Shown: positions 1-24,072 of the stretch, piece by piece
Layout: the number at the start of each line of letters is the position of its first letter
How positions within the stretch are numbered: the first letter of the stretch is position 1
Assembly: GCA_030065265.1 (NCBI GenBank)
Contig: JASJCW010000031.1
Location: 1-29,681, forward strand
Source of the DNA: Prochloraceae cyanobacterium
GTDB lineage: Bacteria > Cyanobacteriota > Cyanobacteriia > Cyanobacteriales > JASJDA01
Reading direction: 5' to 3'
Length of the DNA stretch: 29,681 bases
Notes under the pieces: model-generated
The model's input: only the letters and a program-made list of their open reading frames with translations
What the model was told of the DNA's origin: nothing
The model's database searches: none
Translations under genes and position numbers: made by a program

Positions 1-117
1 GCCCAAGCCTCAGATATTTTGCAACGTTATTTAAGTGCAGCTTTAACCGATACTATGCCCGTCGAAAAAGCAATGACAGCAGCGGCTTCAGAAACAAGAA
101 GATTGCTCGCCAAGTAA
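1..117 (+). CDS. 3' end (C-terminal ~38 aa) of an upstream gene, possibly a family-1 sugar ABC transporter substrate-binding protein; runs off the window start
   Basis: Open frame from base 1 to TAA at 115-117: AQASDILQRYLSAALTDTMPVEKAMTAAASETRRLLAK*. The ending resembles the C-termini of MalE/GgtB-like SBPs (A/T-rich helix, ...Q/E-T-R-x-L-L-K). Fragment only, so weak. Confidence 0.35.
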   Translation, partial: AQASDILQRYLSAALTDTMPVEKAMTAAASETRRLLAK

Positions 118-260
118 GCGATCGAGCCAAAAAAGATCTCGAAAAATCCGAATCGGCGATCCTTTTTAACATTTCCAAGATTAAATGAAAGAAGCAGCTC
201 TTTAGATTGGTACTCATTTTATCGATTTTCAAGCAGGTAAATTAATCAAAAAACAAATTC

Positions 261-1676
261 ATGAGCGATCGCGAAACAACCTTAGAAAAATTAAAACTAT
301 ACCAGCTATGGAATATGAATTGTGGCTTCCTCGGAATTCAATTCGGTTGGGGACTGCAAATGGCAAACATGAGTGCTATTTTTGAGTATCTAGGAGCTAA
401 TGCTTATCAACTACCCCTGCTTTGGATTGCCGCCCCTTTAACTGGTTTAGTCGTTCAACCGATCGTTGGCAATCTCAGCGATTATACTTGGGGGCCTTTA
501 GGGAGAAGAAGGCCTTATATCTTAGTCGGTGGAATACTTGCTTTTATTGGCCTGATATTGATGCCACATTGTTCTGCTCTCTGGATGGCCGCAGGATTGT
601 TGTGGATTTTAGATACCAGCGTCAATGTAAGTATGGTACCGTTTCGGGCATTTGTCGGCGATTTATTGCCTAAAGAGCAACGTACTTTAGGCTTTGCGAT
701 GCAAAGTCTGATGGTAGGAATCGGTGCAGTATCAGCTTCAGCTTTACCCTGGATTCTAAGTCATATTTTTTCAATATCCAACGCCAGCACGATCGCGAAC
801 ACAATACCCCTCAATATTGAAATTTCTTTTTACATCGGTGCGGCAGTATTTTTAATTACAATATTGTGGACTGTCATCACCACTAAGGAAAAACCTCCCA
901 AAAATTTAGAAAAGTTCGAGCAATTGCAAGAGCAAAGAGGCGGTATTCTCTCGAGCGTAAAAGAAACTTGGCTCTCTTTAGGAAAAATGCCTCCAACCAT
1001 GCAACAATTAGCCTGGGTGCAGTTTTTTACCTGGTTGGGTATCTTTTGTTTCTTTCTCTATTTTGCTCCAGCCGTAGCCAGAAATATCTTCGGTGCAGTT
1101 TCTCAAGACTCGAATTTATACGCTGAAGGAGTCGAATGGGCCGGATTGTGTTTTGCTTTGTATAATGCTATTTGCGTTGGTTTTTCTTTTCTTTTACCCT
1201 ATCTCGCCGAACGCACCAGCCGTCAAATTACCCACAGTTTTTGTCTGGTTTGCGGCGGGTTGAGTTTAATCTCGTTATTAGTAATTCAAAATCAATATGT
1301 TTTACTCTTAACTACGATCGGATTTGGGATAACTTGGGCCAGTGCCCTCTCAATGCCTTATGCAATGTTAGTCGGATCTATTCCCCCGCAACGTCAAGGA
1401 ATATATCAAGGCATTTTTAACCTCTTTATCGTTCTACCAGAAATAGCTGTTTCTTTAGGTTTTGGTTGGGTAATGAGAAACGTACTCCACGAAGATCGGG
1501 TTTTAGCAGTGGTCTTAGGGGGAGCATTTTTACTAGTAGCCGCAGCTTTAACCCTATTGGTCAAAACAGCTCCAACTACAATCGAGAGTCAATCCCCAGC
1601 TCAAAGCTTGTCGGGACTGACTTCAGGAGATTCTCAAAAAGTAGCTGTCAAATTAGAAGCTAAAATCGAAAATTAA
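261..1676 (+). CDS. MFS transporter of the GPH / sucrose:H+ symporter (SUT/SLC45-like) family, 12-TM
   Basis: 471-aa ORF. The N-terminal region LGIQFGWGLQMANMSAIFEYLGA...PLLWIAAPLTGLVVQPIVGNLSDYTWGPLGRRRPYIL closely matches the signature of plant/bacterial sucrose transporters (LGIQFGWALQ...GPLSGLLVQPLVG..SD....RFGRRRPFI). It is hydrophobic throughout. Confidence 0.75.
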   Translation: MSDRETTLEKLKLYQLWNMNCGFLGIQFGWGLQMANMSAIFEYLGANAYQLPLLWIAAPLTGLVVQPIVGNLSDYTWGPLGRRRPYILVGGILAFIGLILMPHCSALWMAAGLLWILDTSVNVSMVPFRAFVGDLLPKEQRTLGFAMQSLMVGIGAVSASALPWILSHIFSISNASTIANTIPLNIEISFYIGAAVFLITILWTVITTKEKPPKNLEKFEQLQEQRGGILSSVKETWLSLGKMPPTMQQLAWVQFFTWLGIFCFFLYFAPAVARNIFGAVSQDSNLYAEGVEWAGLCFALYNAICVGFSFLLPYLAERTSRQITHSFCLVCGGLSLISLLVIQNQYVLLLTTIGFGITWASALSMPYAMLVGSIPPQRQGIYQGIFNLFIVLPEIAVSLGFGWVMRNVLHEDRVLAVVLGGAFLLVAAALTLLVKTAPTTIESQSPAQSLSGLTSGDSQKVAVKLEAKIEN

Positions 1677-1864
1677 CGTTATTATTCCTTGAGGAAGAGG
1701 ATCGAAATAATTCTTATTATCTAGAATTGAGAGGATAATGGCAAAAAGCGAAAATAAGCGCAATTTCCTTGGTGTTTAAGCTTTTTGCTCGTACTAAATG
1801 TCTTAATTTCTACTTGAATCGATCTAGATTTTAGTTCGGCCCTAATTTAAATCAATCAAACAAT

Positions 1865-4800
1865 ATGGTCAATCGTTTAGTAGAGCAAAGTCTAGGTATA
1901 TCCAGGTGGAAAGTGGGTCGCTTGACTCAACTTCTCCTTCTGGCTGGCTCTGTACTGATATATAGTGTCATGTCAATGGCAGTTGCAAATTCTCTATTTG
2001 TCAGTCATGTCGGAGCCGAAAAATTGCCGATCGCTTTTATTTTAATCGGCTTATTTTCTCTGCCAGCTTATGCTGTATTTTCCCAGGTTGTCGATAGTTA
2101 CAGTCGCCCCAAACTATTTCGCTACGCTTTATTTGTCGCGATCGCCCTGGCAATTGGCTTGCGTCTTTTACTCAATTTAGAAGCAACACCAGTTTATTAT
2201 CTGCTGCTAATTATTGTTTTCTTCCATTGGGATTTTCATAACAATATTTTGTATCCCAGTTTACTAACAGATTATTTTACAACTTTAGAATACAAAAAAT
2301 ACGCCCCTTTTATCGGCATAACTCAAGCGATTGGAACTCTTTTAGGAGGAGTTTTAACAGCTTTATTGTGTCAATTTTTAACCACTAAAGACTTACTACT
2401 TTGTTTGCCGATTGTCTTCGCAATTGCGATCGCCCAATTAATTTATTTAGAGAATTCCCAACGACCTTTAGATCGGATTAAAACAGAAAATAGAGTTAGT
2501 ATTGTCGAAGCTTTAAGAACTTTCCCAGATTTAGTAAAACGCTTTCCTTTGGTTTTATTTTTAGCTAGTAGCAGCTTCGTTTTAGTTATTATTTATATTA
2601 CATCGGAATTTTTATGGTTTAATATTTACGGTCAGCATTTCAGCCACGAAGCTTTAACCGCATTTTTAGGTTTAATGCGGATTTATATTAGCATTTTAAG
2701 CGCGATCGTTTTATATGTAATCACCCGTCCTTTATTGCAATGGTTGGGAGTGATGCGAATGAATGCGATCTACCCGATGACAACTTTAGCTAGTTTTATC
2801 CTTCTGAATCTAAATTTTAATTTAGGCTCGGCTATTTTACTTCATCTCAACGGCGATTCTCTCTATAAAAGCATTAACTTGCCCGTCCATCAACTCAACT
2901 ACAATGCCATTCCTCCCGAATTTTTAGGGCGAGTGAGAACCATTAGCGACGGTGTAATTTACTCGGTGGGTTTGACCTTAGCCGGAGTTTTACTCTGGAT
3001 CTGTAACTCTTATCTAGAATTAAACCAAATAGTCTGGATCGGCATCTTTTTAAGCGCGATACTGCTCTTAATTCGCTTGCCAATGGGCAAATATTACGCC
3101 AAAGGTCTAGAAGATACGATCAGATCCGGATCGATTGAATTAGACGATTTCAATAATTATCACATTCAACTACCCCCCCAATCCAGCGCGGCAATTCGCG
3201 AACTACTAACCGACAGCGATCGCTACAGTCAAATAAAAGGTTTAGAAATGGCCGCTAAAGTAGGCAACCCGAGTCAATTCTTGCCAGAAGTTCGCGCCAT
3301 CTTACCCCAGGCTAACCCCGAATTTCGCCATTCGATCGTCAAGCTGTTTAGTTCTACTACCGACTCAAAAATGTTAGAACATTTTGAGAGCCTTCTCGAA
3401 GCAGAAAATCCAATTTTGCGAGAAACAGCTTTAGAAATATTAATTGCCAATCAATATCCAATTGCCGAAGCAAAACTAGATATTCTATTATTAGACCGTC
3501 AAAAAGAAATCAGCGTTTTAGCAGCAGTAGCGGTCAATCAGTTAAAAGAAACCGGAGAAATAAACGAAACTATTTTTGAAACCGAACTAGCCGAAAAAAC
3601 CGCCACAACCCTAGCTAGAGTAATCGGTTACACCGGCGATCGCAACTTAATCGGCATGCTCGAACCGATTTTAGCCAGCGAAAGTTCCCAAGTTAAAACA
3701 AAAGTTCTCGAAGCACTAACCAATTTAGCCCAAATCGGCGATCGCCAACTAGCCAACTTAGCAGTTAAAGAAATCAAAAATTCCTCCGCAATGGTCAGAG
3801 CTAGTGCTTTTAACCTCTTGAAAGCAACTAGATGCAAAGGAATGTTGCGTTACGCCGCGATCGGCCTCGAAGACGAAGATCCTAAAGTGCGGAATGCAGC
3901 AGCCAAAACCCTCGCAGCATACGGCAAAGAAGGTTTATCCCTTGCAGAAGATAGTTTATCATCTTCCAACCCAGAAGTAGTCACAGCAGCGATCGCCGCG
4001 ATCGGACAAGTCAAAACCAAACAAGCTAGCGACATTCTCTTTCAATATCTCGCTCCAGATTTTCAACAACTGAGTTTAACTCGCAAATGGCAGCAACAAA
4101 TCCCGCAAAATGACCCCAGTTGGCAGCCATTTACGATTGCGATCGCAGACTACCATCAACGTTTAATTCAAAAAGTTCTCTACATCCTCTCTTGTTTGGG
4201 ACACTATAAAACAGTTAATACAGTCAACCGCATTCTGGCAATTAGCGATCGCAGAACTTTAGCAAACGCTGTCGAAGTATTAGCCTCTCTCAACCATCGT
4301 CGCTTCTTTTTGCCAGTAATGCCCCTACTCGAAGATTTAGTAAAATCTAACGAAAAATCGGCCTCAAACAGCAAAAAAGACCGCAATCCTTGGCTGCGAT
4401 CGAAAGGCTACAAAATTCTCCTAGAAGCACTCGAGTCGGAAGATCGCTGGATTAGAACTGGCGCGCTGATCGCAACCGCAGGAATACCTTATGCTTTAAT
4501 AAAAGACCCCGATCCTTTTGTTAAACAAGTTGCCAGAGAAATATTTCCCCCAGTCGATCGATGTTCCCTAACTACCGCAAGTGCTGCTATGAATAGATTA
4601 CTATTACTTAAAAATATTGCCCTTTTTAAAAATCTCTCCCTCGATGAATTGCTGCAAATCGATCGAGCATTAGAATCAGAACAATATTTAGCCGGAGATA
4701 CGATCTTTAGCGAAGCTAGTTGGGGTACTCACCTTTACATTGTCGCCGAGGGACAAGTAAAAATTATCAAAGAGATAGATGGGGAAACAACCGAGATTAA

Positions 4801-5137
4801 AAGACTCGGTGTCGGTCAATATTTTGGCGAGGTTACTCTGTTCGACGATGCACCCCACTGGGAAGGGGCGATCGCTTTTTCCGACTGCACCTTACTTAAA
4901 TTAGAAAAGAATCGCTTTATTAGTTTGATTACCCAGCGACCCCATATTATTCTAGAAATTTGCCGTTTCTTGAGTCAAAGACTTCGGGAAACAGACCGTT
5001 TTAGAACCCCGAAAAAGTTCTTACCTCCTGCTGAAAATCTCAAATTAGATTTAGATACTTTTTCAGAAACACCCCGAGATCGAGTTGCCAACAGGATTCA
5101 AAATCACAATCAAAGCGAAGCTTCTTTTAAATCATAA
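1865..5137 (+). CDS. Large multidomain membrane protein: N-terminal ~400-aa polytopic domain resembling TLC (ATP/ADP translocase-like)/MFS, central HEAT/PBS-lyase-type repeats, C-terminal cyclic-nucleotide-binding (cNMP/CAP-family) domain
   Basis: 1090-aa ORF. N-terminus SHVGAEKLPIAFILIGLFSLPAYAVFSQVVDSYSRPKLFRYALFV fits the TLC-family pattern (GAE-ipflK...P....lY..l...). The middle has repeated DxDxxVRxxAAxALGxIG-type HEAT units (e.g. EDEDPKVRNAAAKTLAAYG, LESEDRWIRTGALIATAG). The C-terminus LLKNIALFKNLSLDELLQI...GDTIFSEASWGTHLYIVAEGQVKI...GVGQYFGEVTLFDDAPHWEGAIAFSDCTLLKL matches the cNMP-binding fold (FGE..L, RTA-like region). Its stop TAA (5135-5137) overlaps the next ATG (5137-5139). Confidence 0.8.
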   Translation: MVNRLVEQSLGISRWKVGRLTQLLLLAGSVLIYSVMSMAVANSLFVSHVGAEKLPIAFILIGLFSLPAYAVFSQVVDSYSRPKLFRYALFVAIALAIGLRLLLNLEATPVYYLLLIIVFFHWDFHNNILYPSLLTDYFTTLEYKKYAPFIGITQAIGTLLGGVLTALLCQFLTTKDLLLCLPIVFAIAIAQLIYLENSQRPLDRIKTENRVSIVEALRTFPDLVKRFPLVLFLASSSFVLVIIYITSEFLWFNIYGQHFSHEALTAFLGLMRIYISILSAIVLYVITRPLLQWLGVMRMNAIYPMTTLASFILLNLNFNLGSAILLHLNGDSLYKSINLPVHQLNYNAIPPEFLGRVRTISDGVIYSVGLTLAGVLLWICNSYLELNQIVWIGIFLSAILLLIRLPMGKYYAKGLEDTIRSGSIELDDFNNYHIQLPPQSSAAIRELLTDSDRYSQIKGLEMAAKVGNPSQFLPEVRAILPQANPEFRHSIVKLFSSTTDSKMLEHFESLLEAENPILRETALEILIANQYPIAEAKLDILLLDRQKEISVLAAVAVNQLKETGEINETIFETELAEKTATTLARVIGYTGDRNLIGMLEPILASESSQVKTKVLEALTNLAQIGDRQLANLAVKEIKNSSAMVRASAFNLLKATRCKGMLRYAAIGLEDEDPKVRNAAAKTLAAYGKEGLSLAEDSLSSSNPEVVTAAIAAIGQVKTKQASDILFQYLAPDFQQLSLTRKWQQQIPQNDPSWQPFTIAIADYHQRLIQKVLYILSCLGHYKTVNTVNRILAISDRRTLANAVEVLASLNHRRFFLPVMPLLEDLVKSNEKSASNSKKDRNPWLRSKGYKILLEALESEDRWIRTGALIATAGIPYALIKDPDPFVKQVAREIFPPVDRCSLTTASAAMNRLLLLKNIALFKNLSLDELLQIDRALESEQYLAGDTIFSEASWGTHLYIVAEGQVKIIKEIDGETTEIKRLGVGQYFGEVTLFDDAPHWEGAIAFSDCTLLKLEKNRFISLITQRPHIILEICRFLSQRLRETDRFRTPKKFLPPAENLKLDLDTFSETPRDRVANRIQNHNQSEASFKS

Positions 5138-6447
5138 TGAATACTCCCACAGATTATTTACTCCATCGCGATACCTTATCTCTCAAACATCAAGAATTAG
5201 CCCTAACCTTGGCAAATACAGAAAATATTCTGATAATTCAGGATCTCGATGGGGTATGTATGGGATTAGTTAAAGATCCGCTCAAAAGAACTATTGCCAA
5301 AGAATACGTTGCAGCAACTAGATCCTTTCAAAGCCACTTTTATGTCTTAACAAACGGAGAACATATCGGCCGCAGAGGAGTTAATGGCATTATTGAAAGA
5401 GCATTTCAAGATCGGCTCAAAGTCAAAGAAGAAGGTTTATTCTTACCCGGCTTGGCTGCTGGAGGAATTCAGTGGCAAGATAATTACGGTAATATCGATC
5501 ATATCGGTGTCAGCGAAGCAGAACTGTCTTTTCTCGAAGCAGTACCCGTTAAAATTGAAACTCGCTTAAAAGAGTTTTTCGCTCGATATCCAGAAGTTTT
5601 CAATCCAGCAGAACTAGAAGCATGCATTCAAGCCACCGTACTCAAAAACAAAGTCTCCCCTACAGCTAATTTAAATACTTTTTACGACCGACTCGGCAGC
5701 GATCGCCGCGATATTTATATTTCTTTGCAACAAGCAATGCAAGATTTAATGGCCGAGTTATTGCTTGAAGCCAAACAAAAAGGTCTAGAAGATTCCTTCT
5801 TCGTCCATTATGCTCCCAACCTCGGTAAAGGCGATCGGGGCAATGAAATTCTCTGGCCCGCTAGTGCTGAAAATTCAGGAACTACTGACTTTCAATTTAT
5901 GCTCGTCGGTGCCGTCAAAGAAGCAGGAGTCGTCGTAATTTTAAACAAATACTATCATTACCAGATCGGGGAATATCCCCTCGGCAAAGATTTTAACATC
6001 AGAGCCGCCGTGCAACAAAAACAAGATCTCTTCGGCTTAATTAAAAGTAATTTCGACCCGCAAATTATGCCGAAAATAGTCGGTGTTGGCGATACGGTGA
6101 CCAGCAAAGCTGAAACTACCGATAACGGCCTCGAGTTTAAAAGAGGAGGAAGCGATCGCAACTTTTTGCAATTAATTCAAGACCTCAGCGCAGCGTTCGA
6201 TACTGGTAATATTATTACTTATATCGACAGTTCTGGCGGCGAAGTTAAAAACCGCAAACCGCTCCAATTAGCTAAATTGAGCGACGATCGCCGAGAAAAT
6301 GTTACCGAAGAATTTAAAGTCATTCAAGGGCCCGGAGACGATCGCGATCGAGAAGATCCTCTCAAGCTCAACGTTGTCTTTCCCGGAGGCCATCAAGATT
6401 ATATTAAATGCTTTGTTCGAGCAGCAAAAATGCGCGCTAGCAAATAA
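5137..6447 (+). CDS. ggpP: HAD-like phosphatase, candidate glucosylglycerol-3-phosphate phosphatase (GgpP/StpA-like)
   Basis: 436-aa ORF. It has an N-terminal DLDGV motif (HAD motif I). Its size is close to Synechocystis StpA (422 aa). It sits immediately upstream of ggpS, within a glpK/glpD/ggpS cluster. It is translationally coupled (TAATG) to the upstream sensor-like gene. The functional call comes from context plus motif, not a verified alignment. Confidence 0.5.
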   Translation: MNTPTDYLLHRDTLSLKHQELALTLANTENILIIQDLDGVCMGLVKDPLKRTIAKEYVAATRSFQSHFYVLTNGEHIGRRGVNGIIERAFQDRLKVKEEGLFLPGLAAGGIQWQDNYGNIDHIGVSEAELSFLEAVPVKIETRLKEFFARYPEVFNPAELEACIQATVLKNKVSPTANLNTFYDRLGSDRRDIYISLQQAMQDLMAELLLEAKQKGLEDSFFVHYAPNLGKGDRGNEILWPASAENSGTTDFQFMLVGAVKEAGVVVILNKYYHYQIGEYPLGKDFNIRAAVQQKQDLFGLIKSNFDPQIMPKIVGVGDTVTSKAETTDNGLEFKRGGSDRNFLQLIQDLSAAFDTGNIITYIDSSGGEVKNRKPLQLAKLSDDRRENVTEEFKVIQGPGDDRDREDPLKLNVVFPGGHQDYIKCFVRAAKMRASK

Positions 6448-7001
6448 TAGTCTGGCAAAAAATTAATATTTCACCAATTGATTTGACTTCTCTTCATAAA
6501 GTGTAATAAAAGGTTTCCTTCGGAGAATCGTAATGTTAGTATATGTTACGTATTAGTGAAAAATTAACTGCAATACTGCGTTTATAGCAAAGCTATGCAA
6601 TAGGAAATTGCCATAAATTGAAAAATAATTCTATAAATACAAAAAGTTGGGATTGAATTAAAAATTGATAGTAGTTAGAAAGTATTTTTAATCTAGATTT
6701 AATAGCTCCAATAAAGATCCCATTTACCTAAAAATTCTGCCAAAAAACAATAAATAAATTGGAGAAAATCTAGAAAATAAAATAGCAGCAAGTTCGAGAT
6801 ACTAACTTTTTACTGAAAATATAATCTCAATTATAAGTATTTAATCGTATTGTCTGTTAGGGTAGCAAAAATTATTTTCAATGTTATCTAAATTTTTATA
6901 AACGCGATCGGCCCGTTTTACTGATAAGTTAGAAAAATGTTTTATAAAACTCCTGTAGGTTAGTTCCAATTAACACAAAGGATTATTCAAAAAATAAACC
7001 C
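6448..7001 (+). promoter_or_regulatory. 554-bp AT-rich non-coding 5' region of ggpS (promoter/leader; possible regulatory RNA or small ORF region)
   Basis: No ORF of 60 aa or more on either strand. It is extremely AT-rich with poly-A/T tracts. In Synechocystis the ggpS upstream region carries the small regulator ggpR and is post-transcriptionally regulated. Exact promoter elements not resolved. Confidence 0.3.
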
Positions 7002-8486
7002 ATGAAATCTTCTCTAGTCATTCTCTATCATCGCGAACCTTACGACGAAGTAGTCGAAAACGGGAAAACTCGCTATTTACCCAAAAAAAGCCCCAACGGT
7101 ATCGTTCCTACCCTCAAAAGCTTCTTCGCTGAAGTCAGTCAAGGAGCGTGGATCGCTTGGAAACAAATAACAGTCAAACAAAAAGCAAAATTTCAAGCCA
7201 AAGTGCAGGTTGAAGAAGAACAGGGAAACTACGATGTTGTCAGAATTCCTTTAAACGCAGAACAAGTTAAACAGTTCTATCACATCACTTCCAAAGAAGC
7301 ATTTTGGCCTATTTTGCACTCTTTTCCTTTTCACTTCACCTACGAATCTTCCGACTGGGAAAACTTTAAAAATATCAATCGTTTATTCGCCGAAGCAGCC
7401 TGTGAAGAAGCTGCAGACGATGCTTTAATTTGGATTCACGATTATAATTTGTGGCTAACACCTCAATACATCAGAGAAATTAAACCAGACGCAAAAATTG
7501 CATTTTTTCACCATACCCCCTTCCCTTCAGTAGACATTTTTAACATTTTGCCTTGGCGAGAAGAAATCGTTAATAGTTTGCTTTGTTGCGACATTGTCGG
7601 GTTTCACATTCCTAGGTATGCAGAAAATTTTGTTAATGTTGCTCGCAGTTTGCAGCCGTTAGAAATTTTAGAAAAAAAAGCTGTCACCGGACATATGACC
7701 CCCGTAGGGACTGCTTTAGCAGAGCCAGAAGTAACCACTAAGCTCAAGTTTAAAGGACAGGTGGTCAACGTCGATGCTTTCCCCGTCGGAACTAATCCCG
7801 GATATATTCTCTCAGTATTGAGCCAAGAAGAAACTCAAAAAAGACTCGCTCAAATTGAAGAAGAGTTACAAGGACGCAAATTAATTATTGCTGCAGGTCG
7901 AGTAGACTACGTTAAAGGCAACAAAGAAAAATTAGATGCTTTCGGTCGCTTGCTAGAACGCCGTCCCGACCTACATGGTAAAATCAACTTCGTCATGACC
8001 TGCGTGCAACCTGCGGTTGGTATGCGAGTCTATAAAACTGCTCAAGGTCAAATCGAGCAATTAGTCGGGAAAATAAACGGCAGATATGCCAAACTAGGCT
8101 GGACACCGATCTTACTCTTCACCCAACCCTTACCCCTATCAGATTTATTCTGTTACTACCGTTTAGCAGATATTTGTTGGACGACACCCCTGCGAGACGG
8201 CTTAAATTTAGTCGCCAAAGAATATGTGATCGCTCACAAAGGTGAAGGAGGAGTTCTGGTTCTTTCCGAATTCGTTGGTGCTGCAGTAGAATTGCCAGAA
8301 GCAATTTTAACTAATCCTTACTCCATCGATCGCATGGATGAATCCATCGATCGCGCCCTATCGATGCCCAAAGAAGAACAAAAAGAAAGAATGGCGAAAA
8401 TGTACGAAACCGTCAGCAAATACGATGTTAAGTATTGGGCCGATCGCCTTCTAGACTCCTTCAAAGCCATTAAAGAGCAAAATTGA
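7002..8486 (+). CDS. ggpS: Glucosylglycerol-phosphate synthase (GT20 family, OtsA-like)
   Basis: 494-aa ORF. It contains LIWIHDYNLWLTPQYIRE (compare OtsA IIWIHDYHLLP), FFHHTPFPSVDIFNILPWREEI and LNLVAKEY motifs of GT20 trehalose-P/GG-P synthases. The N-terminus SLVILYHREPYDEV... and the length (~499 aa in Synechocystis GgpS) fit GgpS rather than OtsA. It neighbours glpK and glpD. Confidence 0.8.
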   Translation: MKSSLVILYHREPYDEVVENGKTRYLPKKSPNGIVPTLKSFFAEVSQGAWIAWKQITVKQKAKFQAKVQVEEEQGNYDVVRIPLNAEQVKQFYHITSKEAFWPILHSFPFHFTYESSDWENFKNINRLFAEAACEEAADDALIWIHDYNLWLTPQYIREIKPDAKIAFFHHTPFPSVDIFNILPWREEIVNSLLCCDIVGFHIPRYAENFVNVARSLQPLEILEKKAVTGHMTPVGTALAEPEVTTKLKFKGQVVNVDAFPVGTNPGYILSVLSQEETQKRLAQIEEELQGRKLIIAAGRVDYVKGNKEKLDAFGRLLERRPDLHGKINFVMTCVQPAVGMRVYKTAQGQIEQLVGKINGRYAKLGWTPILLFTQPLPLSDLFCYYRLADICWTTPLRDGLNLVAKEYVIAHKGEGGVLVLSEFVGAAVELPEAILTNPYSIDRMDESIDRALSMPKEEQKERMAKMYETVSKYDVKYWADRLLDSFKAIKEQN

Positions 8487-8557
8487 CAGCCCAAATAAAC
8501 CGGCAAATTTGAGAGTTCGAGCAGTCAGCAGTTAGCAGTCAGCAAGATTCTTACTCG

Positions 8558-10063
8558 CTACTCGCTCCAATTTTTTGCCCTTTCTACGGCTTTTTGCCAA
8601 ATGCGATAACTATCCTCAATGCGATCGCGACCGCCTTTTGCCGGCTCGAAAACGCGATCGATCTTGCGAGTCGAAATTAAAGCACCGTAATCGTCCCAAA
8701 AACCGACAGCTAAACCAGCACCAAAAGCAGCACCTTGCGCGGTAGCATCCAAAATAGCCGGACGCTCGACGGGAATACCTAAAGCATCAGCTTGAAACTG
8801 CATTAAAAAATTATTTTGAGAAGCACCACCATCAACTTTTAAACGAGCCACAGAAAAATCGCTATCTCGGTTAGCCGCTTCAACAACCTCTTTAACCCGA
8901 TAGGCGATCGCTTCTAAAACAGCTCTGACGGCATGTTCTCGCTTCACTCCCCCAGTAAGACCTAAAAAAGCACCTCGAGCGTTAGTATCCCAGTGTGGCG
9001 CGCCCAAACCGCTCAATGCAGGGACAAAATAGACCCCATTCGTATCTTCGACGCTGCTGGCTAAATCTTCCGTTTCTGGCGCGCTGGCAATTATTTTCAA
9101 GCCATCTCGCAACCATTGTATCGATGCACCCGTAGTGAAGATCGCACCTTCTAAAGCGTAATTAGTCGAATCAGGTTGCGTCCAAGCAACGGTAGAGAGC
9201 AGTTTTTGGGACGAGCGAGTTAAATTGAGTCCGGTTTGTACGATTAAAAAAGAACCAGTGCCGTAGGTGCATTTTAACAAGCCCGGGCGATCGCACCCAT
9301 GAGCGAATAAAGCCGACTGCTGGTCGCCAAATATTGCCGTAATCGGAATTTCTGCATCCAATAGTTGGGGATCGGTCTTGCCGAAACTGCCCATACTGTG
9401 TTTGATTTCCGGCATCATCTGGGTGGGAATGGCAAATAAATCCAATAATCGGCGATCCCATTCTAAAGTGGCTAAATTCATTAGCATAGTCCGACTTGCG
9501 TTACTATGGTCGGTGGCATGTACTTGACCGCCAGTCAAATTCCACAAAATCCAACTATCGATCGTCCCAGCAATTACATTATCTAAATCGATCGCCGGTC
9601 TTTCTTGCTTGACCCAATTTAGCAACCAAGTCAGTTTAGTTGCCGAAAAATAAGGATCGAGAATTAATCCCGTAATTTCTTGAATTTCTTTATCTTTGCC
9701 TTTTGCTGCTAAATCGCGACACATTGAAGCAGTACGACGATCTTGCCAGACGATCGCCTTGTGCAAAGGTTCTCCTGTTGTTTTGTCCCATAACAAACAA
9801 GTTTCTCTTTGAACTGTCAAACCGATTGCAGCAATTTCTCGAGCCGAAATCTTGGTATTTTGCAAAACTAATTCGATTACAGTGCGAGTATCTTGCCAAA
9901 TTTCCCGCGCGTCGTGTTCGAGCCAGCCGGGTTGGGGATAATATTGAGTTAATTCTTTGTAAGCTTGGCCGACAATATTGCCGCTGCGATCGAATAAAAT
10001 TGCTCTATTTCCTGTCGTACCTAAATCTATTGCTAGAACGTATTTATAAGTATTGTTTGTCAT
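8558..10063 (-). CDS. glpK: Glycerol kinase
   Basis: N-terminal YVLAIDLGTTGNRAILFD matches the FGGY-kinase / GlpK signature, as do the internal GLTVQRET, ALEGAIFTTGASIQWLRDGL and GGASQNNFLMQFQADALGIPVERP motifs. The ORF-track start at 10111 adds 16 non-conserved residues. The internal ATG at 10061-10063 (MTNNTYKYVLAIDLG) is the likely start. Confidence 0.9.
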   Translation of the reverse strand: MTNNTYKYVLAIDLGTTGNRAILFDRSGNIVGQAYKELTQYYPQPGWLEHDAREIWQDTRTVIELVLQNTKISAREIAAIGLTVQRETCLLWDKTTGEPLHKAIVWQDRRTASMCRDLAAKGKDKEIQEITGLILDPYFSATKLTWLLNWVKQERPAIDLDNVIAGTIDSWILWNLTGGQVHATDHSNASRTMLMNLATLEWDRRLLDLFAIPTQMMPEIKHSMGSFGKTDPQLLDAEIPITAIFGDQQSALFAHGCDRPGLLKCTYGTGSFLIVQTGLNLTRSSQKLLSTVAWTQPDSTNYALEGAIFTTGASIQWLRDGLKIIASAPETEDLASSVEDTNGVYFVPALSGLGAPHWDTNARGAFLGLTGGVKREHAVRAVLEAIAYRVKEVVEAANRDSDFSVARLKVDGGASQNNFLMQFQADALGIPVERPAILDATAQGAAFGAGLAVGFWDDYGALISTRKIDRVFEPAKGGRDRIEDSYRIWQKAVERAKNWSE

Positions 10064-10213
10064 AGTAGGGAACGGGTCAAAATAATAAATTGAACTGCAA
10101 TTATAGAGCAAGTCGCGAGTAAAATTCCGAGGAGAAAATCTTACTTAAATTAATTTAAAATTCAAGATTTTTTTACTCTTTATTCAAAAAATTTTACTCT
10201 CTTGATGCTCTAT

Positions 10214-12721
10214 TTAATCTTCCGATTTTTGAATCGGTTTTAATAATAAAGCTTGACTGTTAGCTAAATTAAAACAACGCAGATCTGCTAAATTATTATT
10301 ATCATTTAGTCCTACAGAAGCAAGATCGACAGTCCATTCTGACATATCCAGTTGCAACCAGTCCCCTAAAGTAATTTCAAAAGGCTCGCCTTCGAGATGG
10401 GCTACCATTGCGATTTGTTCGGTAGGATTTTCTGGATTAGAGCGAATCCCGTAAAAAATCGTGCGATCGCCTTCACTAATTTTATTAAAACGATCTGTTG
10501 CTTTGAGATTCCCATTCAACCAGGAGCGATCGCGACGAAATTGTCGCAATTTAAGATTGAATTCCGTATTGTCAGGATTGAGATCTTCTAAGTAATGGGA
10601 AACATTGCAAACTTCATAGCAATCTTCCATAAACATTTGGGCAAATTTTTTAAATCTTTCTACATTTAGCTTGCGAATGTAACTGATAATTTCAGGAGTA
10701 TCCAGAAATTTCATGAAGAAAAGATCGGTATCGGAAATATCAATGCGATCGTTTTTAATTAAACTGTGAAAAGTTTGAATTACCTCTAAGAGATCGTAAT
10801 TTCTTTCTAATATGGTTTCTTCTAAAAACCTACCAAAAGCCCGCAACTGTTCTAAAGTTTTAAAACCGAGAGATTTGACCCGAGGAAAAACCCATTCTCG
10901 ATCGTAAAATTCCGGGCTAATTTGCCAATCTAAAAAGCCCATTTCTTCGGAAATAACTTTAACACCGTAGCGATCGTCAGTATTGCGAAAAAACATCCAG
11001 GGCGATCTGGTAGTACAATTAATAAAATCCATCGGCAAACCCGGAGAAAAACCGTAAACCCACAAAGTGACGGCTTGATTGTCGTAGGCATGGCGAATTA
11101 CTTCAGTTAAATTTTCCCCCAATCGCCAGTTGATTGGCTTGCTAGGATCTACTTGAGAACCGCGTCTGAGGGTATCGTGATTGCCGCAACCAGTGATCCA
11201 GCGATCGCCCATCTGAATTACTTCGCAGACTCGCCGCCATTTCCGTTCCCAAAAACCAGTCAAAGTGGGGGTATTGTGGGCAAAAATTAGCGGCCCCCAT
11301 TGGTAAGATTCGGGTTTGAGTTCGATTAATTCCCGATAGGTAGATTTTTCTTCCCAACCTTCTTCGGGCCAGGGGCGACCGTCTTCATAAATCGTGAAAA
11401 GCAATCTTTGACAGCCATTTATTTCTTGAACTAAATCGCTCATTGCCAACAAATAGGCATCGTCTTGTTCTACTCTTCCAGATAAAGGATTAAAAAAGCG
11501 GAAATCCTGACCGCCATCGACGCGAATACCATCAGCCCCAGTGTTAATTTTACGACGCTGCAGTTCCAAAAATATCGCCCGCACCGTCGGCAATTGATGG
11601 TTGAGATCTTGCCCGTACATATTCGGGCCTTTAAGATACTGACGGTTAATTAATAATTCGGCTTGATTGTCAGCATGACCGTAAACTAAATCGTAAATGA
11701 TTTGAATCGGGCCCGTAGGAAAATTATGTAAAGTAGCGATAAAATCAATTAGTTCGTCCGGGCGCAGACTTTGTAAAATAGCTGGGTTGGTAGCACTAGA
11801 ACCGAGAATAGGAACGTCGTAGCCCCAATCTTGAGTATTTGGTTTTAATAATTTAATTGGCGATCTGTTGAGGGGAGGAAGTATTCTCGCTTTGCGATCT
11901 GATTCTTTATCAGCAAACAAAAAAAATTCACTTTCTTGCTGGTAATTTTGCCTGTATTCGATCGGCGGTTCGATCGGCAATAACTGTACTGCATCGTAAC
12001 CGACATAACATTCTTCTGCCGGAGTAAGCGGAATATTTTCTCGGATTTTGCGACTGATTTGACGGTAAATTTCCGTTAAACCGGCGATCGTTCCCGATCG
12101 CGAAGCAGTACCGATATGAAGTTGTAAAATAGCAACTGGCGCGCCAACTCGAGGCACTTCTTCATCCCCGTTCGCTCTTGAAGTGCGCCGCAAATATTCC
12201 ATATCTTCCCGATTGGCCTGCAAACTCTCCATATCGTAAAGTTCGGCCGGAGCAAAGATACCGAAAGGTAGAGAATAGGGCATCATATCCCGAATTGTTT
12301 GCAATTGCCCTTTTTGATTGTAGTAGCGCAACCAATAAAAACAACCAGGTCGATCTTTAGTTCCAGCTTGCATCCCTTCGATCGCACCCCAAAAAAATTC
12401 ACCTTGCTGTTTTAAACGCAAACAGTCGCGGCGAAAATGAGTAGTTTGCATCGGCGATCGCCAGTCGATTTCTTCTAAGGGAGTAAAAACTTCTAAATAT
12501 ATATCTCGCGGTCGCATTATTTCCCCAGTTAATTCCGGGGCCCAAAAACCTATTTCAGTCAAACCATTCTGACGGTGGTAGTGCGCACCTAATTTAGTAG
12601 CTAAGGCTTCTGCTCTCTCAAAAACAGTTGCATCGGACTGTTCTATTTCTTTAGCCCAGTCCAATAATTCTTGGGTTGCATCCTCAGCAAGTTTGACAAA
12701 ATCTTTTGTTTCTATAACCAT
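10214..12721 (-). CDS. gghA: GH13-like glycoside hydrolase, candidate glucosylglycerol hydrolase (GghA-like)
   Basis: 835-aa ORF. GYDAVQLLPIEP resembles GH13 region I (GxTHVELLPV). ADGIRVDGGQDF resembles GH13 catalytic region II (DGFRxDAAKH). Its size is close to Synechocystis Slr1670/GghA. It lies directly upstream of glpK on the same strand, as gghA does relative to glpK in Synechocystis. Confidence 0.5.
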   Translation of the reverse strand: MVIETKDFVKLAEDATQELLDWAKEIEQSDATVFERAEALATKLGAHYHRQNGLTEIGFWAPELTGEIMRPRDIYLEVFTPLEEIDWRSPMQTTHFRRDCLRLKQQGEFFWGAIEGMQAGTKDRPGCFYWLRYYNQKGQLQTIRDMMPYSLPFGIFAPAELYDMESLQANREDMEYLRRTSRANGDEEVPRVGAPVAILQLHIGTASRSGTIAGLTEIYRQISRKIRENIPLTPAEECYVGYDAVQLLPIEPPIEYRQNYQQESEFFLFADKESDRKARILPPLNRSPIKLLKPNTQDWGYDVPILGSSATNPAILQSLRPDELIDFIATLHNFPTGPIQIIYDLVYGHADNQAELLINRQYLKGPNMYGQDLNHQLPTVRAIFLELQRRKINTGADGIRVDGGQDFRFFNPLSGRVEQDDAYLLAMSDLVQEINGCQRLLFTIYEDGRPWPEEGWEEKSTYRELIELKPESYQWGPLIFAHNTPTLTGFWERKWRRVCEVIQMGDRWITGCGNHDTLRRGSQVDPSKPINWRLGENLTEVIRHAYDNQAVTLWVYGFSPGLPMDFINCTTRSPWMFFRNTDDRYGVKVISEEMGFLDWQISPEFYDREWVFPRVKSLGFKTLEQLRAFGRFLEETILERNYDLLEVIQTFHSLIKNDRIDISDTDLFFMKFLDTPEIISYIRKLNVERFKKFAQMFMEDCYEVCNVSHYLEDLNPDNTEFNLKLRQFRRDRSWLNGNLKATDRFNKISEGDRTIFYGIRSNPENPTEQIAMVAHLEGEPFEITLGDWLQLDMSEWTVDLASVGLNDNNNLADLRCFNLANSQALLLKPIQKSED

Positions 12722-12847
12722 AATGTTAATACGTTGGAAATATTATTGCTGATTTTTAAACAATACAGCAAAATTAACACTCAATATTTCTTTGGCAAAA
12801 AACCGAACTATGATGGAATTTAGTAAACATTCATAAAATCGTAAATC

Positions 12848-14533
12848 GTGAGAGACTATCAATCAATTAAAAATACAAGCTACGAAGCAATAATTATCGG
12901 TGGAGGGATAAATGGAGCGGGAGTAGCTCGAGATGCTGCTTTAAGAGGATTAAAAACTATTTTAATCGAAAAAAACGATTTTGCTAGTGGTAGTTCTAGT
13001 TGGTCTACTAGATTAGTGCATGGAGGGTTGCGATATCTAGAATATTTTGAATTACCTTTAGTAAGAGAGTCTTTAAAAGAAAGAGAAATTTTATTAAACA
13101 TCGCCCCTCATTTAGTTAAACCTCTTTTATTAACCGTACCAGTTTACGGCGATCGCTCTCGCCCTTATTGGAAAATTTGGGCTGGAATGATTCTGTACGA
13201 TCTTTTTAGCTTTGATAAAACCCTCCCGGGTTATAGAATGCTAAATAAAGCAAAATTTAAGCGGATTTTTCCGACTTTAGATCCTGAAAATTTAAGTGGT
13301 GGAGCGCAATATTACGACGCTCGAGTTGCTCATGCTGAAAGATTGTGTCTTGAAAATATTATTTCAGCTAAAGAAGCCGGTGCAGACGTACTCAATTACG
13401 TCAAAGTAACTCGATTGCACCTTGAAGGGAAGAAAATTACTCATCTTACCTGCAAAGATACCTTGACAGGAGAAGAATTTACAGTTAAAGGCACAGAAGA
13501 TGCAGTGATTGTAAACACTTCAGGCCCTTGGGTAGATGAAGTATGTGGTTCTATTGAAATCGAAGCAACCAAAGCCGACAGTTCCAAGGCGATCGTTCAC
13601 GGTAAAAAAATGGGGCCGACTAAAGGCAGCCATATTGTTGTCGATCCTTTTCCAGGTGCGCCAGAAAGCGGTCTTTACGTTGAAGCTAAATCCGACGGTC
13701 GTCCTTTCTTTATTTTGCCTTGGTTGGGTAAATATTTAATCGGAACTACGGATTTTCCCTATCACAAAGATCTCGAATCGATCAAAGCAGATAACGATGA
13801 AATCGATTATTTATTAACAGAAACAAATAATATTTTACCGACAGCTAATTTATCGCGCCAAGATATTAAATTCACCTATTCTGGAGTGCGTCCTTTACCA
13901 AACGAAGCAGGAAAAAAAGCCGGGAGTATTACTCGCTCTCACATTCTCTTTGACGGAAAAAAAGAAGGGGTATTTAATTTAATTTCTCTAATTGGCGGCA
14001 AACTAACAACCTATCGTCAAGTAGGCGAAGAAATAGTCGATGCGATTTTAAAAAAACAAGGCAAACCAATTTCTAGCTCTAAAACGGCTCTTCAACCTTT
14101 ACCCGGAGCTATTAAAGCCTCTAATCCTCTGATTCAAAAAACTATCGATCTATATCGGGATAAAGTTTCTTTAAACATTATTGCCCATCTCTTTTCTCTT
14201 TACGGAGCTAGAGCTGTCTCAGTTTTAGAATTAACCGAAGAAAATCCTGAATTAGCCGAAACTATTCATCCCGAATTACCAGATATTAAAGCCCAACTCG
14301 TCTATGGAGTCCGAGTTGAATTTGCCCTGAGTTTAGTAGATTTGATTCGCCGTCGCACTGCGATCGCCATGGAGGCTAATTACGGCTTAGATGTACTGAC
14401 AACCTCGATCGAAGTTTTACAAAAATATTGCAATTGGAGCGCAGAACGTTGCGAACTGGCTCGTTCTGAATATATTACTTATATGAAAAACAATTGCATT
14501 CCCGATTTTGAATTAGAGGCAAACTTAATATAG
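12848..14533 (+). CDS. glpD: FAD-dependent glycerol-3-phosphate dehydrogenase
   Basis: YEAIIIGGGINGAGVARDAALRGLKTILIEKNDFASGSSSWSTRLVHGGLRYLE is the classic GlpD N-terminal FAD-binding signature (GGGINGAG...D.A.GTSS.S.KL.HGGLRYLE). 561 aa. Confidence 0.9.
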   Translation: MRDYQSIKNTSYEAIIIGGGINGAGVARDAALRGLKTILIEKNDFASGSSSWSTRLVHGGLRYLEYFELPLVRESLKEREILLNIAPHLVKPLLLTVPVYGDRSRPYWKIWAGMILYDLFSFDKTLPGYRMLNKAKFKRIFPTLDPENLSGGAQYYDARVAHAERLCLENIISAKEAGADVLNYVKVTRLHLEGKKITHLTCKDTLTGEEFTVKGTEDAVIVNTSGPWVDEVCGSIEIEATKADSSKAIVHGKKMGPTKGSHIVVDPFPGAPESGLYVEAKSDGRPFFILPWLGKYLIGTTDFPYHKDLESIKADNDEIDYLLTETNNILPTANLSRQDIKFTYSGVRPLPNEAGKKAGSITRSHILFDGKKEGVFNLISLIGGKLTTYRQVGEEIVDAILKKQGKPISSSKTALQPLPGAIKASNPLIQKTIDLYRDKVSLNIIAHLFSLYGARAVSVLELTEENPELAETIHPELPDIKAQLVYGVRVEFALSLVDLIRRRTAIAMEANYGLDVLTTSIEVLQKYCNWSAERCELARSEYITYMKNNCIPDFELEANLI

Positions 14534-14536
14534 AGA

Positions 14537-16054
14537 TTGAGGATAATGGATAATAATTTTTTTAAGGACTCGTTGGATAAAAAAGTTATCGAACAACGGG
14601 TTAGTGCAATTAGCCAAGCTAAGGTGGGATTTTATAGCATCGGTCTTTATCCGGCCTCTCTTGCTTACAATTCGGCAATGCAAAAAAGCAATAAATCTCT
14701 TCTATTAGCTACCCGGCCGGGAAGATCTCTCCTCGGGGCATTTTCTGAAGAGGAAATTAAAGGAATGGATCCCCGACACCTCGTCAAGATGCGTCGCATG
14801 GCATCCCATAAAGAAAACGGAAAATCCGTACCGAATACTCTAGAATACTTGATCGCAAAGTGCGATTTAATCGTCTTGAGTTCTAATAGTAAATACATCA
14901 AGCAAGATCTCGACCAAGCTTGCAATCTTAGAAAAAAGCTCGGTCGCACTAATGTCGTGCTTTCCTGTCTAGCAGGTTCTTTCAACCACGATGAAGCTAA
15001 TAATGAGTCTTATGTATTGTGCGAAAAATATCCCAATCTGGCCTTTTTCTCTGGATTTCATCGACACGGTTCGTTAAGAGATCCGGTAGATAGTTTTACA
15101 GCTAATTTTTGCCATCCCAATTCTTTAACAGCTTTGATCGGGGCCCACATACTGAATCAACTTTCTCCGAACATTCAAGTTTCTCCTGGAATTCACAATG
15201 TTGAAGCGCAATATTTGAAAGCTGCTAAAAATATGGCATCTATTTTTGCCGGTTTTGGTTATGTTTATCACGAGCAAAATCCAGGGATTCTGCCTACTCT
15301 ATTGACTTTGTTGCTCCATCAATGTTTAGATCAGGCTGCGACCGTTTCTATGTCGCGACAAGATCGCGAAAAGCTTTACACTCAGCAAACCATTGCTTTA
15401 ACGGAGTTAGGTTATGCTATACCGAGAATTGAAGCAGTCTTAAATAAAGGTGGTTTTACCGAAAAAGTTCGCGATCATACTTTTTCTCAATTAACGGCGA
15501 TGGTTGCTGACGTGCGAGGAAGTATGATGCTTCCAGTCACTGGGAAACCTACCAGAAATTTTCAAGCCGGACAAGCTTTAGCCTACGGTATGTCGAAACA
15601 CGGTCGCTGTCCGATCGACGTTAAAGAATTTGAACAGTGGTGTAAAGATGCTGGATTAAATGTCGGATCTTTAGAAGGTTTAAAAGCTTTGAAATACTGG
15701 CCGCAAATCGAAGCAAAATACTCAATTCAAAATCACGATGCTTCAATGGTTAATCTTCTTTATAAGGGATTGTATGGCACTGAAGAAGAAAAAGATTTTG
15801 CTTTTGAAGTGATGACACAAAGTCGAGAATTATCAAATTATTGTCAAGAGTCGGTTCGACATACCCACAGTCGCAAGTATGCAGAAGCCCTTAATCATAT
15901 CGAACAATTAGAAGCACTCGAATTAATTTCAAACGCTATTATTGCCGACAACGCGCGCAAAGCTATTCGCAATAACGATAATCCAATTGAAGAAAGAGAA
16001 TTAAATTCAGATACTCCAGCTTATTTGCGAGCAATTGACTCTATCGAACAATAG
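14537..16054 (+). CDS. Hypothetical protein with a GpsA-like (NAD-dependent G3P dehydrogenase / opine-DH fold) core, degenerate dinucleotide motif, ~120-aa C-terminal extension
   Basis: 505-aa ORF starting 3 nt after the glpD stop. Weak but collinear resemblance to GpsA: KVGFYSIGLYPASLA versus KIAVLGAGSWGTALA (glycines lost), CDLIVLSSNSKYIKQ versus ADLVLFVVPSQAFRE, LSCLAGSF versus VISGPTF, and TGKPTRNFQAGQALAYGMS versus TDNQSRNRRFGMMLGQGMD. Assignment is tentative. Confidence 0.4.
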   Translation: MRIMDNNFFKDSLDKKVIEQRVSAISQAKVGFYSIGLYPASLAYNSAMQKSNKSLLLATRPGRSLLGAFSEEEIKGMDPRHLVKMRRMASHKENGKSVPNTLEYLIAKCDLIVLSSNSKYIKQDLDQACNLRKKLGRTNVVLSCLAGSFNHDEANNESYVLCEKYPNLAFFSGFHRHGSLRDPVDSFTANFCHPNSLTALIGAHILNQLSPNIQVSPGIHNVEAQYLKAAKNMASIFAGFGYVYHEQNPGILPTLLTLLLHQCLDQAATVSMSRQDREKLYTQQTIALTELGYAIPRIEAVLNKGGFTEKVRDHTFSQLTAMVADVRGSMMLPVTGKPTRNFQAGQALAYGMSKHGRCPIDVKEFEQWCKDAGLNVGSLEGLKALKYWPQIEAKYSIQNHDASMVNLLYKGLYGTEEEKDFAFEVMTQSRELSNYCQESVRHTHSRKYAEALNHIEQLEALELISNAIIADNARKAIRNNDNPIEERELNSDTPAYLRAIDSIEQ

Positions 16055-16105: not shown

Positions 16106-16177
16106 TTACCCCAAAAGTTTTGGGGTATTTTCTAGATAAAACCCTTCAATTATCAAAGTTTTAATCCCAATTCTGTT
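16106..16177 (-). pseudogene. Relic of a methyltransferase 3' end (degenerate duplicate of the C-terminus of the 17097..17714 gene)
   Basis: Minus-strand translation gives NRIGIKTLIIEGFYLENTPKLLG*. The C-terminus of the adjacent SAM-MTase reads ...KSIIIEEFYVENAPKIMGYYY. Identical or similar at 15 of 18 positions, K[ST][IL]IIE[EG]FY[VL]EN[AT]PK[IL][ML]G, including the stop-proximal position. There is no upstream ORF continuation (stop immediately 5'). Confidence 0.35.
16107..16133 (+). terminator. Rho-independent terminator candidate downstream of the 505-aa ORF
   Basis: TACCCCAAAAG TTTTGGGGTA forms a perfect 9-10-bp inverted repeat (ACCCCAAAA/TTTTGGGGT), followed by TTTTCT. It lies 53 bp after the stop at 16054. 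Confidence 0.5.
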
Positions 16178-18709: not shown

Positions 18710-18721
18710 TGTTTCAATCTT

Positions 18722-19300: not shown

Positions 19301-19338
19301 ATTATAATTTTAGTTTTTGCGAGGATATTACAATTTTT

Positions 19339-19914: not shown

Positions 19915-20137
19915 ATATTTCTACCTAATCGTAAATTGCAAACTAATTTTATTATTATCGATTTGCTCGAGCGATCGATGTAGGGATAATACCCATTGGG
20001 AGCGTCGGGAGAGGTTAGTCGTTAGTGGGGAGTGTTGAAAGCGTCTGCAGAAAAAAATCAGCTGATTTTACCAATTTACAATTAATCAACCAATTTCAAA
20101 CTAAACAACTACCTACTACCTACTCCCTAACTTCGCT

Positions 20138-24040: not shown

Positions 24041-24072
24041 TAATCCATTTTTAGACCACAAAAAAAGCTAAA

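Follow-up and report, generated by a model that had tools for sequence, protein, structure and literature searches.

A consolidated glucosylglycerol locus in a Prochloraceae cyanobacterium, with an orphan GpsA-like protein and a conserved symporter pair attached

The DNA considered here (the window) is a complete contig of 29,681 bp from the metagenome-assembled genome (MAG) of a 'Prochloraceae cyanobacterium', and its positions 1–16054 hold a cluster of genes for glucosylglycerol (GG). Genes were called from a listing of open reading frames (ORFs) and from curated Pfam and NCBIfam profile searches with family cut-offs, on which basis the gene identities and the assignment as a GG locus are near certain. 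Six pathway genes lie within 11 kb, which is far beyond chance, and this clustering recurs in related genomes. Our explanation, which taken as a whole we consider probable (about 0.72), is that these genes form a chromosomal GG locus of about four transcription units, that their consolidation did not involve a mobile element, that a very divergent GpsA-type protein encoded there (called X505 in the following) would act in the metabolism of glycerol 3-phosphate (G3P), and that a symporter and its neighbour would serve in transport. The cluster itself adds little, being a tighter layout of a neighbourhood known from the literature. What is new is found in two riders on it, namely the orphan GpsA-like family of X505 and the pair formed by the symporter and a 1090-aa membrane protein, both of which are widespread and uncharacterised.

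When the synthesis genes are considered, ggpS (7002–8486, forward strand), encoding the glucosylglycerol-phosphate synthase of family GT20, reaches 760 bits against TIGR02398 (cut-off 569), and a protein identical to it carries the name GgpS in the NCBI record of the 'Prochloraceae cyanobacterium' MAG. The gene 5' of it, ggpP, also known as stpA (5137–6447, forward), encodes the glucosylglycerol-3-phosphate phosphatase, with 506 bits against TIGR02399 (cut-off 365.5) and 559 bits against PF09506 over positions 1–388 of 388. A trehalose/glycerol locus with OtsA/OtsB-like enzymes is the alternative that comes to mind at this point, since GgpS and OtsA share the GT20 fold, and PF00982 alone therefore cannot tell the two apart. 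Against this stand not only the TIGR02398 score but also the 418 bits that the synthase obtains with the OtsA model TIGR02400, under the cut-off of 565, as it is under those of all four OtsA models; moreover, the phosphatase is a TIGR02399/PF09506 protein and not OtsB, and gghA is present. The trehalose locus was rejected on these grounds and its probability is negligible: with GgpS rather than OtsA, and with GgpP present, the locus is a GG locus. A preliminary description of this DNA had named the identity of the products of 7002–8486 and 5137–6447 as the point that separates the two pathways, and the answer is in favour of GG; profile searches also recovered every gene that this description had named, each in the place assigned to it.

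The breakdown and G3P genes follow on both strands. The product of gghA (10214–12721, reverse), the glucosylglycerol hydrolase, matches the GHL5 family PF14872 at full length (positions 1–809 of 809) with 1395 bits, and this is its sole Pfam match; Slr1670/GghA is itself a GHL5 protein (PMC5002435). It is 56–64% identical to the gene product encoded next to ggpS in Stanieria, Xenococcaceae and Acaryochloris, and GG hydrolysis is its predicted activity. No alpha-amylase domain was detected with Pfam and no PDB sequence match at E < 1e-3; family GH13, to which the protein had previously been assigned, is ruled out, and that label was a mistake. Glycerol kinase is encoded by glpK (8558–10063, reverse), which scores 661 bits against TIGR01311 (cut-off 590) and has both the FGGY_N and the FGGY_C domain. 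Its ORF extends to 10111, and the N-terminal translation makes the ATG at 10063 the probable start. The FAD-dependent G3P dehydrogenase gene glpD (12848–14533, forward) is borderline against NF008899 (362 bits, cut-off 360), and its product has the DAO (182 bits) and DAO_C (86 bits) domains together with an FAD-binding motif, IIIGGGINGAG, of the GxGxxG type. Together, GghA would split GG into glucose and glycerol, GlpK would rephosphorylate the glycerol, and GlpD would oxidise G3P to dihydroxyacetone phosphate (DHAP). Uptake is incompletely represented, since the window lacks the ABC permease and ATPase genes ggtC, ggtD and ggtA. The earlier statement that the whole salt-acclimation pathway is assembled in this place is for this reason an overstatement.

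The arrangement of these genes suggests about four transcription units. The stop codon of the gene for the 1090-aa protein (1865–5137, forward) overlaps the ATG of ggpP (TAATG), which implies co-transcription and coupled translation of the two. The gene for X505 (14546–16054, forward; 502 aa, or 505 aa when read from 14537) has its ATG at 14546, preceded by GAGGA and only 12 nt past the glpD stop, and a terminator-like hairpin with a 9-bp stem followed by a T-run (16107–16127, forward), 53 nt 3' of the X505 stop, marks the right end of the cluster. On the minus strand, gghA and glpK form one unit, which diverges from glpD over 126 bp (12722–12847). This intergenic region is presumed to hold promoters for both directions, and the AT-rich spacer of 554 bp between ggpP and ggpS (6448–7001) is presumed to be the promoter or regulatory region of ggpS. 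A first unit would accordingly run from the symporter gene through the gene for the 1090-aa protein to ggpP, with the last two translationally coupled; a second would comprise ggpS behind its long AT-rich regulatory spacer; a third would consist of gghA and glpK on the opposite strand; and a fourth would consist of glpD and X505, closed by the hairpin terminator. The tight co-regulation that had been put forward for the region is plausible in the light of the TAATG overlap, the short glpD/X505 gap with its GAGGA and the hairpin after X505. An Rfam scan of the window returned no match and a tRNA scan returned none either. When the ggpP–ggpS spacer is compared with that of the relative whose GgpS is 88% identical (locus L154), conservation is patchy and the sequence AT-rich. 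A conserved block at 6448–6560 (L154:9568–9680), just 3' of the ggpP stop, reads …AAAAGGTTT…AATGTTA[GA]TAT…TACGT[AG]TTA and could be a terminator or a regulatory element; outside this block the spacer has diverged between the two.

The locus is indeed more consolidated than in Synechocystis sp. PCC 6803, as the preliminary description had maintained. In that organism, sll1566 (ggpS) and sll1085 (glpD) face slr1670 (gghA) and slr1672 (glpK) (PMC6753628, PMC8670252), and the GG genes are salt-regulated. Both organisms have the same enzymes, with gghA and glpK in one same-strand unit and ggpS and glpD on one strand; in the window, however, glpK converges on ggpS, and gghA faces glpD instead of ggpS. 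Moreover, ggpP lies about 555 bp 5' of ggpS in the window, whereas in Synechocystis it is found at a separate locus with ggtA. Further differences are the presence of X505 after glpD and the attachment of the symporter/1090-aa pair and of an ABC binding protein gene; neither a GgpR-like small ORF nor spoU was identified in the window.

Nevertheless, a single compact island, which had been presented as something special, is not new in kind. Co-localisation of gghA, ggpS, glpK and glpD has been described for many cyanobacteria (PMC6753628 section 13, Fig. 6B, the legend of which lists a 'gpsA' too), and the arrangement of ggpS/glpD with slr1670–1677 is widely conserved among GG accumulators (PMC8670252). 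Judging by locus-tag numbers, stpA (A2841), ggpS (A2851) and glpD (A2852) are also near each other in Synechococcus PCC 7002 (PMC6950573). Four loci were compared with ggpS as the anchor. The closest relative, L154, has ggpP and ggpS in tandem with a convergent glpK only; Stanieria PCC 7437 and a Xenococcaceae MAG have gghA diverging from a ggpS–glpD tandem; and Acaryochloris marina has ggpP, two unrelated genes, glpK and gghA on the opposite strand, and then ggpS in the forward direction. Another locus, found through its X505 gene (L029), has ggpP, glpD and ggpS facing gghA, X505 and glpK, and is thus equally consolidated in another order. With relatives showing such graded partial clusters, the window is one extreme of a continuum of rearranged neighbourhoods.

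The first of the two riders, X505, belongs to a family that escapes the usual models. No Pfam or NCBIfam match was obtained, the GpsA models PF01210, PF07479 and gpsA staying silent even at E up to 10, and neither phmmer nor hmmsearch gave a PDB sequence match. Homologues number in the hundreds and are all cyanobacterial and all labelled 'hypothetical', save for one that JGI labelled 'glycerol-3-phosphate dehydrogenase'; identity is 65–85% across cyanobacterial orders, even between Pleurocapsales and marine Synechococcus. A HMMER search over 1.84 billion representatives yielded one full-length X505 cluster, fragments, and two distant bacterial relatives of 660–676 aa with about 30% identity, the genomic neighbours of which are uninformative. 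The relationship to GpsA became visible by profile–profile comparison. When an X505 profile widened with divergent members was aligned by hhalign with a profile built from E. coli GpsA and eight plasmid-borne GpsA sequences, the match extended over >313 columns with a probability of 91.9% in local mode (E 7e-7) and 96.7% in global mode, E ranging from 7e-7 to 5e-10, as against a probability of 0.1% and E 0.71 for a reversed-sequence control. This significance was reached only after the divergent X505 members and the eight additional GpsA sequences had been added, the shallow X505 alignment (A1) against E. coli GpsA alone being not significant (0.5%). The AlphaFold2 (AF2) model has a mean pLDDT of 62 and a good N-terminal domain. 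Taken together, X505 has the two-domain GpsA fold at the level of remote homology and goes undetected by the GpsA family models; at this level of fold and remote homology, its earlier description as 'GpsA-like' proved right. A literature search on sll1084, slr1671 and slr1674 found nothing relevant.

Several substrate-site residues of the GpsA superfamily are kept. K228-N229 (in 'AAKN'), D322, R337-N338 (in 'TRN') and E377-G378 are conserved family-wide in X505. On the basis of the hhalign alignment and of GPD1 numbering, we take K228-N229 to be equivalent to K204/N205 of human GPD1, of which the Lys is superfamily-wide, D322 to D260, and R337-N338 to the phosphate clamp R269/N270. Apart from these residues, the distance to GpsA (E. 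coli b3608; PDB 3k96, 1txg and 1z82; human GPD1, 1x0v) is considerable: X505 is only 13–15% identical to these proteins, has 502 aa versus about 335 for GpsA, including an insertion of about 45 aa and a C-terminal extension of about 80 aa without GpsA counterpart, and its family is almost only cyanobacterial and very strongly conserved. The osmoregulatory enzymes yeast GPD1 and Dunaliella salina DsGPDH (PDB 6iuy) differ from X505 in keeping the canonical NAD site and the catalytic lysines; DsGPDH also has a phosphatase domain fused to it. The osmotic role proposed for X505 is drawn from gene neighbourhood only.

That neighbourhood was surveyed at 80 species-representative X505 loci, with a distance of 10 kb for GG genes. 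X505 was beside GG genes at 14 of them, in distinct architectures and distant lineages: ggpS-glpD-X505 in two Synechococcus MAGs (L023, L027), glpD-X505 in L025 and the window, gghA-X505-glpK in L029, and, in six loci of marine Synechococcus, WH7803 among them, a divergent ggpP/X505 pair separated by about 75 bp. In Leptolyngbya cf. ectocarpi (L072) a homologue of the SUT-like symporter comes directly after X505, and in L079 X505 is about 2 kb from gghA. By a rough estimate, adjacency to any of a few GG loci would arise by chance in around 1% of cases in a genome of ~5000 genes. X505 is also carried by Cyanobium ATX 6A2 (L065); among freshwater picocyanobacteria, only this one and one other have ggpSP and glpK (PMC9361551).

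Two further gene groups accompany X505 in other genomes. Directly 3' of it, in six Waterburya/Pleurocapsa-like loci (L013, L016, L019, L021, L032 and L074, at about 11.5–14.8 kb), stands a trio encoding a Ser/Thr kinase, a P-loop GTPase-like protein (DO-GTPase2, a faint match) and an unknown protein. The same trio (41–70% identity) is found in Stanieria PCC 7437 (L155:17701–20652), 4.3 kb beyond ggpS-glpD, and may have been left over from a ggpS-glpD-X505 linkage in an ancestor. About 4 kb 3' of X505, a gene for an APH-family phosphotransferase (~390–416 aa) overlaps one for a protein of 175–193 aa without known family (L013:15209–16908, L059:15335–17168, and eight or nine more loci); this pair occurs in Pleurocapsales-like genomes and in marine Synechococcus, an unexpectedly long-range conserved synteny.

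As for function, we take X505 for a GpsA-type protein that has diverged very far and would act on G3P or DHAP, and its most likely role would be that of an osmolyte-dedicated, NAD(P)H-dependent DHAP reductase supplying G3P to GgpS; for this enzymatic role, proposed from sequence, the odds are roughly even. The usual direction of the GlpD reaction is oxidative. In papers on GG synthesis, this FAD-dependent enzyme is named as the supplier of G3P from DHAP (PMC8670252, PMC6950573), and where the G3P for GG actually comes from seems not to have been looked into in the GG literature.

The second rider begins near the left end of the window. Positions 1–116 (forward) encode the C-terminal 38 residues of a carbohydrate ABC substrate-binding protein, which is seen at its full length of 443 aa at L085:935–2266, L085 being an overlapping metagenome contig of the same organism that is 99–100% identical. 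Its NCBIfam matches are weak and of generic sugar-binding type (GanS, MalE, UgpB), and it may be GgtB-like; in L085 there are no permease genes 3' of it, and 934 bp are visible 5'. The next gene (261–1676, forward) encodes a major facilitator superfamily (MFS) sugar:H+ symporter of 471 aa (MFS471) that resembles SUT and SLC45 proteins, with 97 bits against MFS_1 and 38.6 bits against MFS_2. Its best PDB matches are Arabidopsis SUC1 (E 1e-22) and SLC45A4 (E 3e-11), so that the plant SUC/SUT sucrose:H+ symporters and animal SLC45 (PDB 8bb6, 9giu) are its best relatives, all with a common 12-helix MFS/GPH architecture. Unlike SUC/SUT, the window symporter stays far under the cut-off of the GPH_sucrose model TIGR01301 (119 bits versus 511) and thus falls outside that subfamily, and in cyanobacteria it is paired with the gene for the 1090-aa protein. 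Its homologues there, 63–84% identical, adjoin homologues of that gene.

The 1090-aa protein combines an MFS-like region of 6+6 helices (~14–404), HEAT repeats (~440–900) and a cyclic-nucleotide-binding (CNB) domain (926–1046), and its family is conserved across cyanobacteria at 57–64% identity. HEAT_2 was matched with 71 bits and cNMP_binding (PF00027) with 68.6 bits (cut-off 27.5), and MFS_1 weakly (E 1.4e-5) with the isolated N-terminus. The AF2 model shows the helix pattern, the membrane domain being too poorly modelled to classify, and Foldseek with the whole model matched HEAT and CNB structures only, among them alphaRep/HEAT proteins and the CNB domains of PKG, PKA and CRP, with TM-scores of 0.7–0.8 for the CNB domain against those of PKG and PKA. 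Like the 1090-aa protein, SLC9C1 and SthK/MloK1, reached by Foldseek through the CNB domain, have a CNB domain C-terminal to a membrane domain of transport type; in the 1090-aa protein, however, that membrane domain is MFS-like and not of NHE or channel type, and about 450 aa of HEAT repeats lie in between. A literature search on the MFS/HEAT/cNMP architecture found nothing relevant. The phosphate-binding cassette (window positions 4820–4875, residues ~986–1003) reads FGEVTLFDDAPHWEGAIA, with the motif PHWEG. In the family the cassette is PRW[DE]G, where W[DE]G replaces the canonical [ST]A of FGE...R[ST]A, and of 120 homologues, 100 have Arg at the phosphate-binding position and 15, the window copy among them, have His.

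The symporter homologue is the immediate same-strand neighbour of the 1090-aa homologue at 17 of the 23 loci with room on both sides, and at 30 of the 41 with room upstream (~73%). The pair is joined to ggpP only in the window organism, and within 8–10 kb of the pair no GG gene was found elsewhere, for instance in Pleurocapsa PCC 7319, the exceptions being the window organism's own contigs. It follows that the pair is an independent conserved module fused to ggpP in the window lineage. In our explanation, the symporter and the ABC binding protein would recover compatible solute that has leaked out or is present outside the cell, the symporter would work together with the MFS-like/HEAT/CNB protein, its conserved neighbour in most cyanobacteria, and the window organism would have placed the pair in the ggpP operon. 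Such a role of the transport pair in GG metabolism has about an equal chance of being right or wrong.

A number of observations speak against parts of this explanation. X505 is without a GG gene within 10 kb at 66 of the 80 surveyed loci, those of the closest Xenococcaceae relatives included, and it occurs in none of the four ggpS-anchored loci. Its AF2 model is mediocre as a whole and poor in the C-terminal half. The dinucleotide loop is SxGxxP, an invariant 'SIGLYP', in place of GxGxxG, the catalytic Lys specific to G3P dehydrogenases (human K120, 'KG') is replaced ('LAGSF'), and 'SGPxxAxE' has turned into 'SGFHRHG', so that redox activity of X505 is not assured; the distant bacterial sister clade (P0259, P0261) retains 'NPGPYG' and 'AKG', which makes these losses derived in X505. 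The CNB domain of the window copy has His for the phosphate-binding Arg and thus departs from the canonical cassette. The pair is near GG genes only in the window organism, so that its link to GG may be incidental. Finally, a promoter scan found sites no more numerous than in shuffled sequence.

These observations give room to other explanations for both riders. The main rival for X505 is that it could be a non-catalytic pseudoenzyme derived from GpsA, which binds G3P, DHAP or a related phospho-ligand and acts as a sensor, a regulator or an accessory subunit, for instance for GlpD or GgpS. Loss of the glycine-rich loop and of the Lys equivalent to K120, with the phosphate-binding residues preserved, would be expected of such a protein, and its extreme conservation across cyanobacterial orders, the insertion and C-terminal extension, and its place directly 3' of glpD in several lineages point the same way. 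Yet the Lys-Asn, Asp and Glu-Gly of the superfamily are all invariant, which is more than ligand binding alone needs, the invariant Arg57 and Arg60, which follow beta-strand 2, would be well placed for the 2'-phosphate of NADPH, and in marine Synechococcus X505 is not beside glpD; a pseudoenzyme is therefore possible and, in our judgement, rather unlikely. The transport pair, in turn, could be unrelated to GG and form a general sugar or metabolite transport module, possibly regulated by cyclic nucleotides, as its conservation in most of the cyanobacteria examined, with GG genes nearby only in the window organism, would lead one to think. In contrast, the stop codon of the 1090-aa gene and the start codon of ggpP overlap, the gene for a sugar ABC binding protein is directly 5' of the pair, a symporter homologue follows X505 directly in L072, and sucrose, which is also a compatible solute of cyanobacteria, is what the symporter's nearest characterised relatives transport. 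The chances of an unrelated module fall just short of even. A more far-reaching combination would have X505 found a GpsA-derived, almost only cyanobacterial family with a remodelled cofactor and catalytic site, serving GG either as a dedicated G3P supplier or as a G3P-sensing controller, and the symporter and the MFS-like/HEAT/CNB protein form a two-protein, nucleotide-regulated transport system for compatible solutes; in this joint form the idea is tentative, and we would sooner doubt it than adopt it.

An explanation of a different kind, put forward in the preliminary description, takes the 16-kb region as a horizontally mobile 'halotolerance island'. The pathway genes all together would make a transferable unit, the GC content at third codon positions (GC3) of the island genes is slightly above that of the rest of the contig (0.36 vs 0.30), and X505 is 79% identical to a protein of the phylogenetically distant Synechococcus PCC 7336. 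However, per-gene GC3 ranges overlap, and the tetranucleotide correlation between island and rest (0.89) resembles those within the parts (0.87 and 0.91). No tRNA, integrase or transposase is present in the contig, flanking repeats not having been searched for. The nearest relatives of the cluster genes are all in the same Pleurocapsales-like taxa, X505 is more conserved than its neighbours everywhere, and gene order differs in every relative examined, which indicates repeated local rearrangement instead of the transfer of a fixed cassette. Since the left boundary is outside the window, this test of mobility is incomplete. With neither mobility genes nor tRNA in the contig and a composition like that of the rest, the mobile island was rejected and is improbable, and the earlier suggestion of horizontal mobility finds no support. 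The locus appears to be chromosomal, in a Pleurocapsales-like cyanobacterial MAG.

The rest of the contig contains genes of other kinds. A little over 2 kb past the right end of the GG cluster starts an array of stress proteins, with four tandem TerD-domain paralogues of 191–198 aa (18113–20713, reverse) that match PF02342 at full length with 239–259 bits. An SPFH/Band-7 protein of 432 aa with two C-terminal GYF_2 domains is encoded within 22742–25146 (forward), and directly after its gene comes that of a protein of 357 aa, which has zinc-ribbon-like motifs at its N-terminus and matches no Pfam family. A DUF6923 repeat protein (25672–27543, forward) and a NagZ-like beta-N-acetylhexosaminidase (27583–28992, reverse; 156 bits against NF003740, under the cut-off) are unrelated to the GG cluster.

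Cyanobacteria of moderate salt tolerance have GG as their main compatible solute; GG is also a biotechnology product, and the enzymes of its synthesis and breakdown are known. The presence of X505, with its G3P-binding residues preserved, beside ggpS, glpD, gghA, glpK or ggpP in several distant lineages makes it a testable candidate for the missing G3P step or for the regulation of that step; should this be true, it would also be of use in engineered GG production. Likewise uncharacterised, and widespread in cyanobacteria, is the second module, formed by the symporter and the 1090-aa protein.

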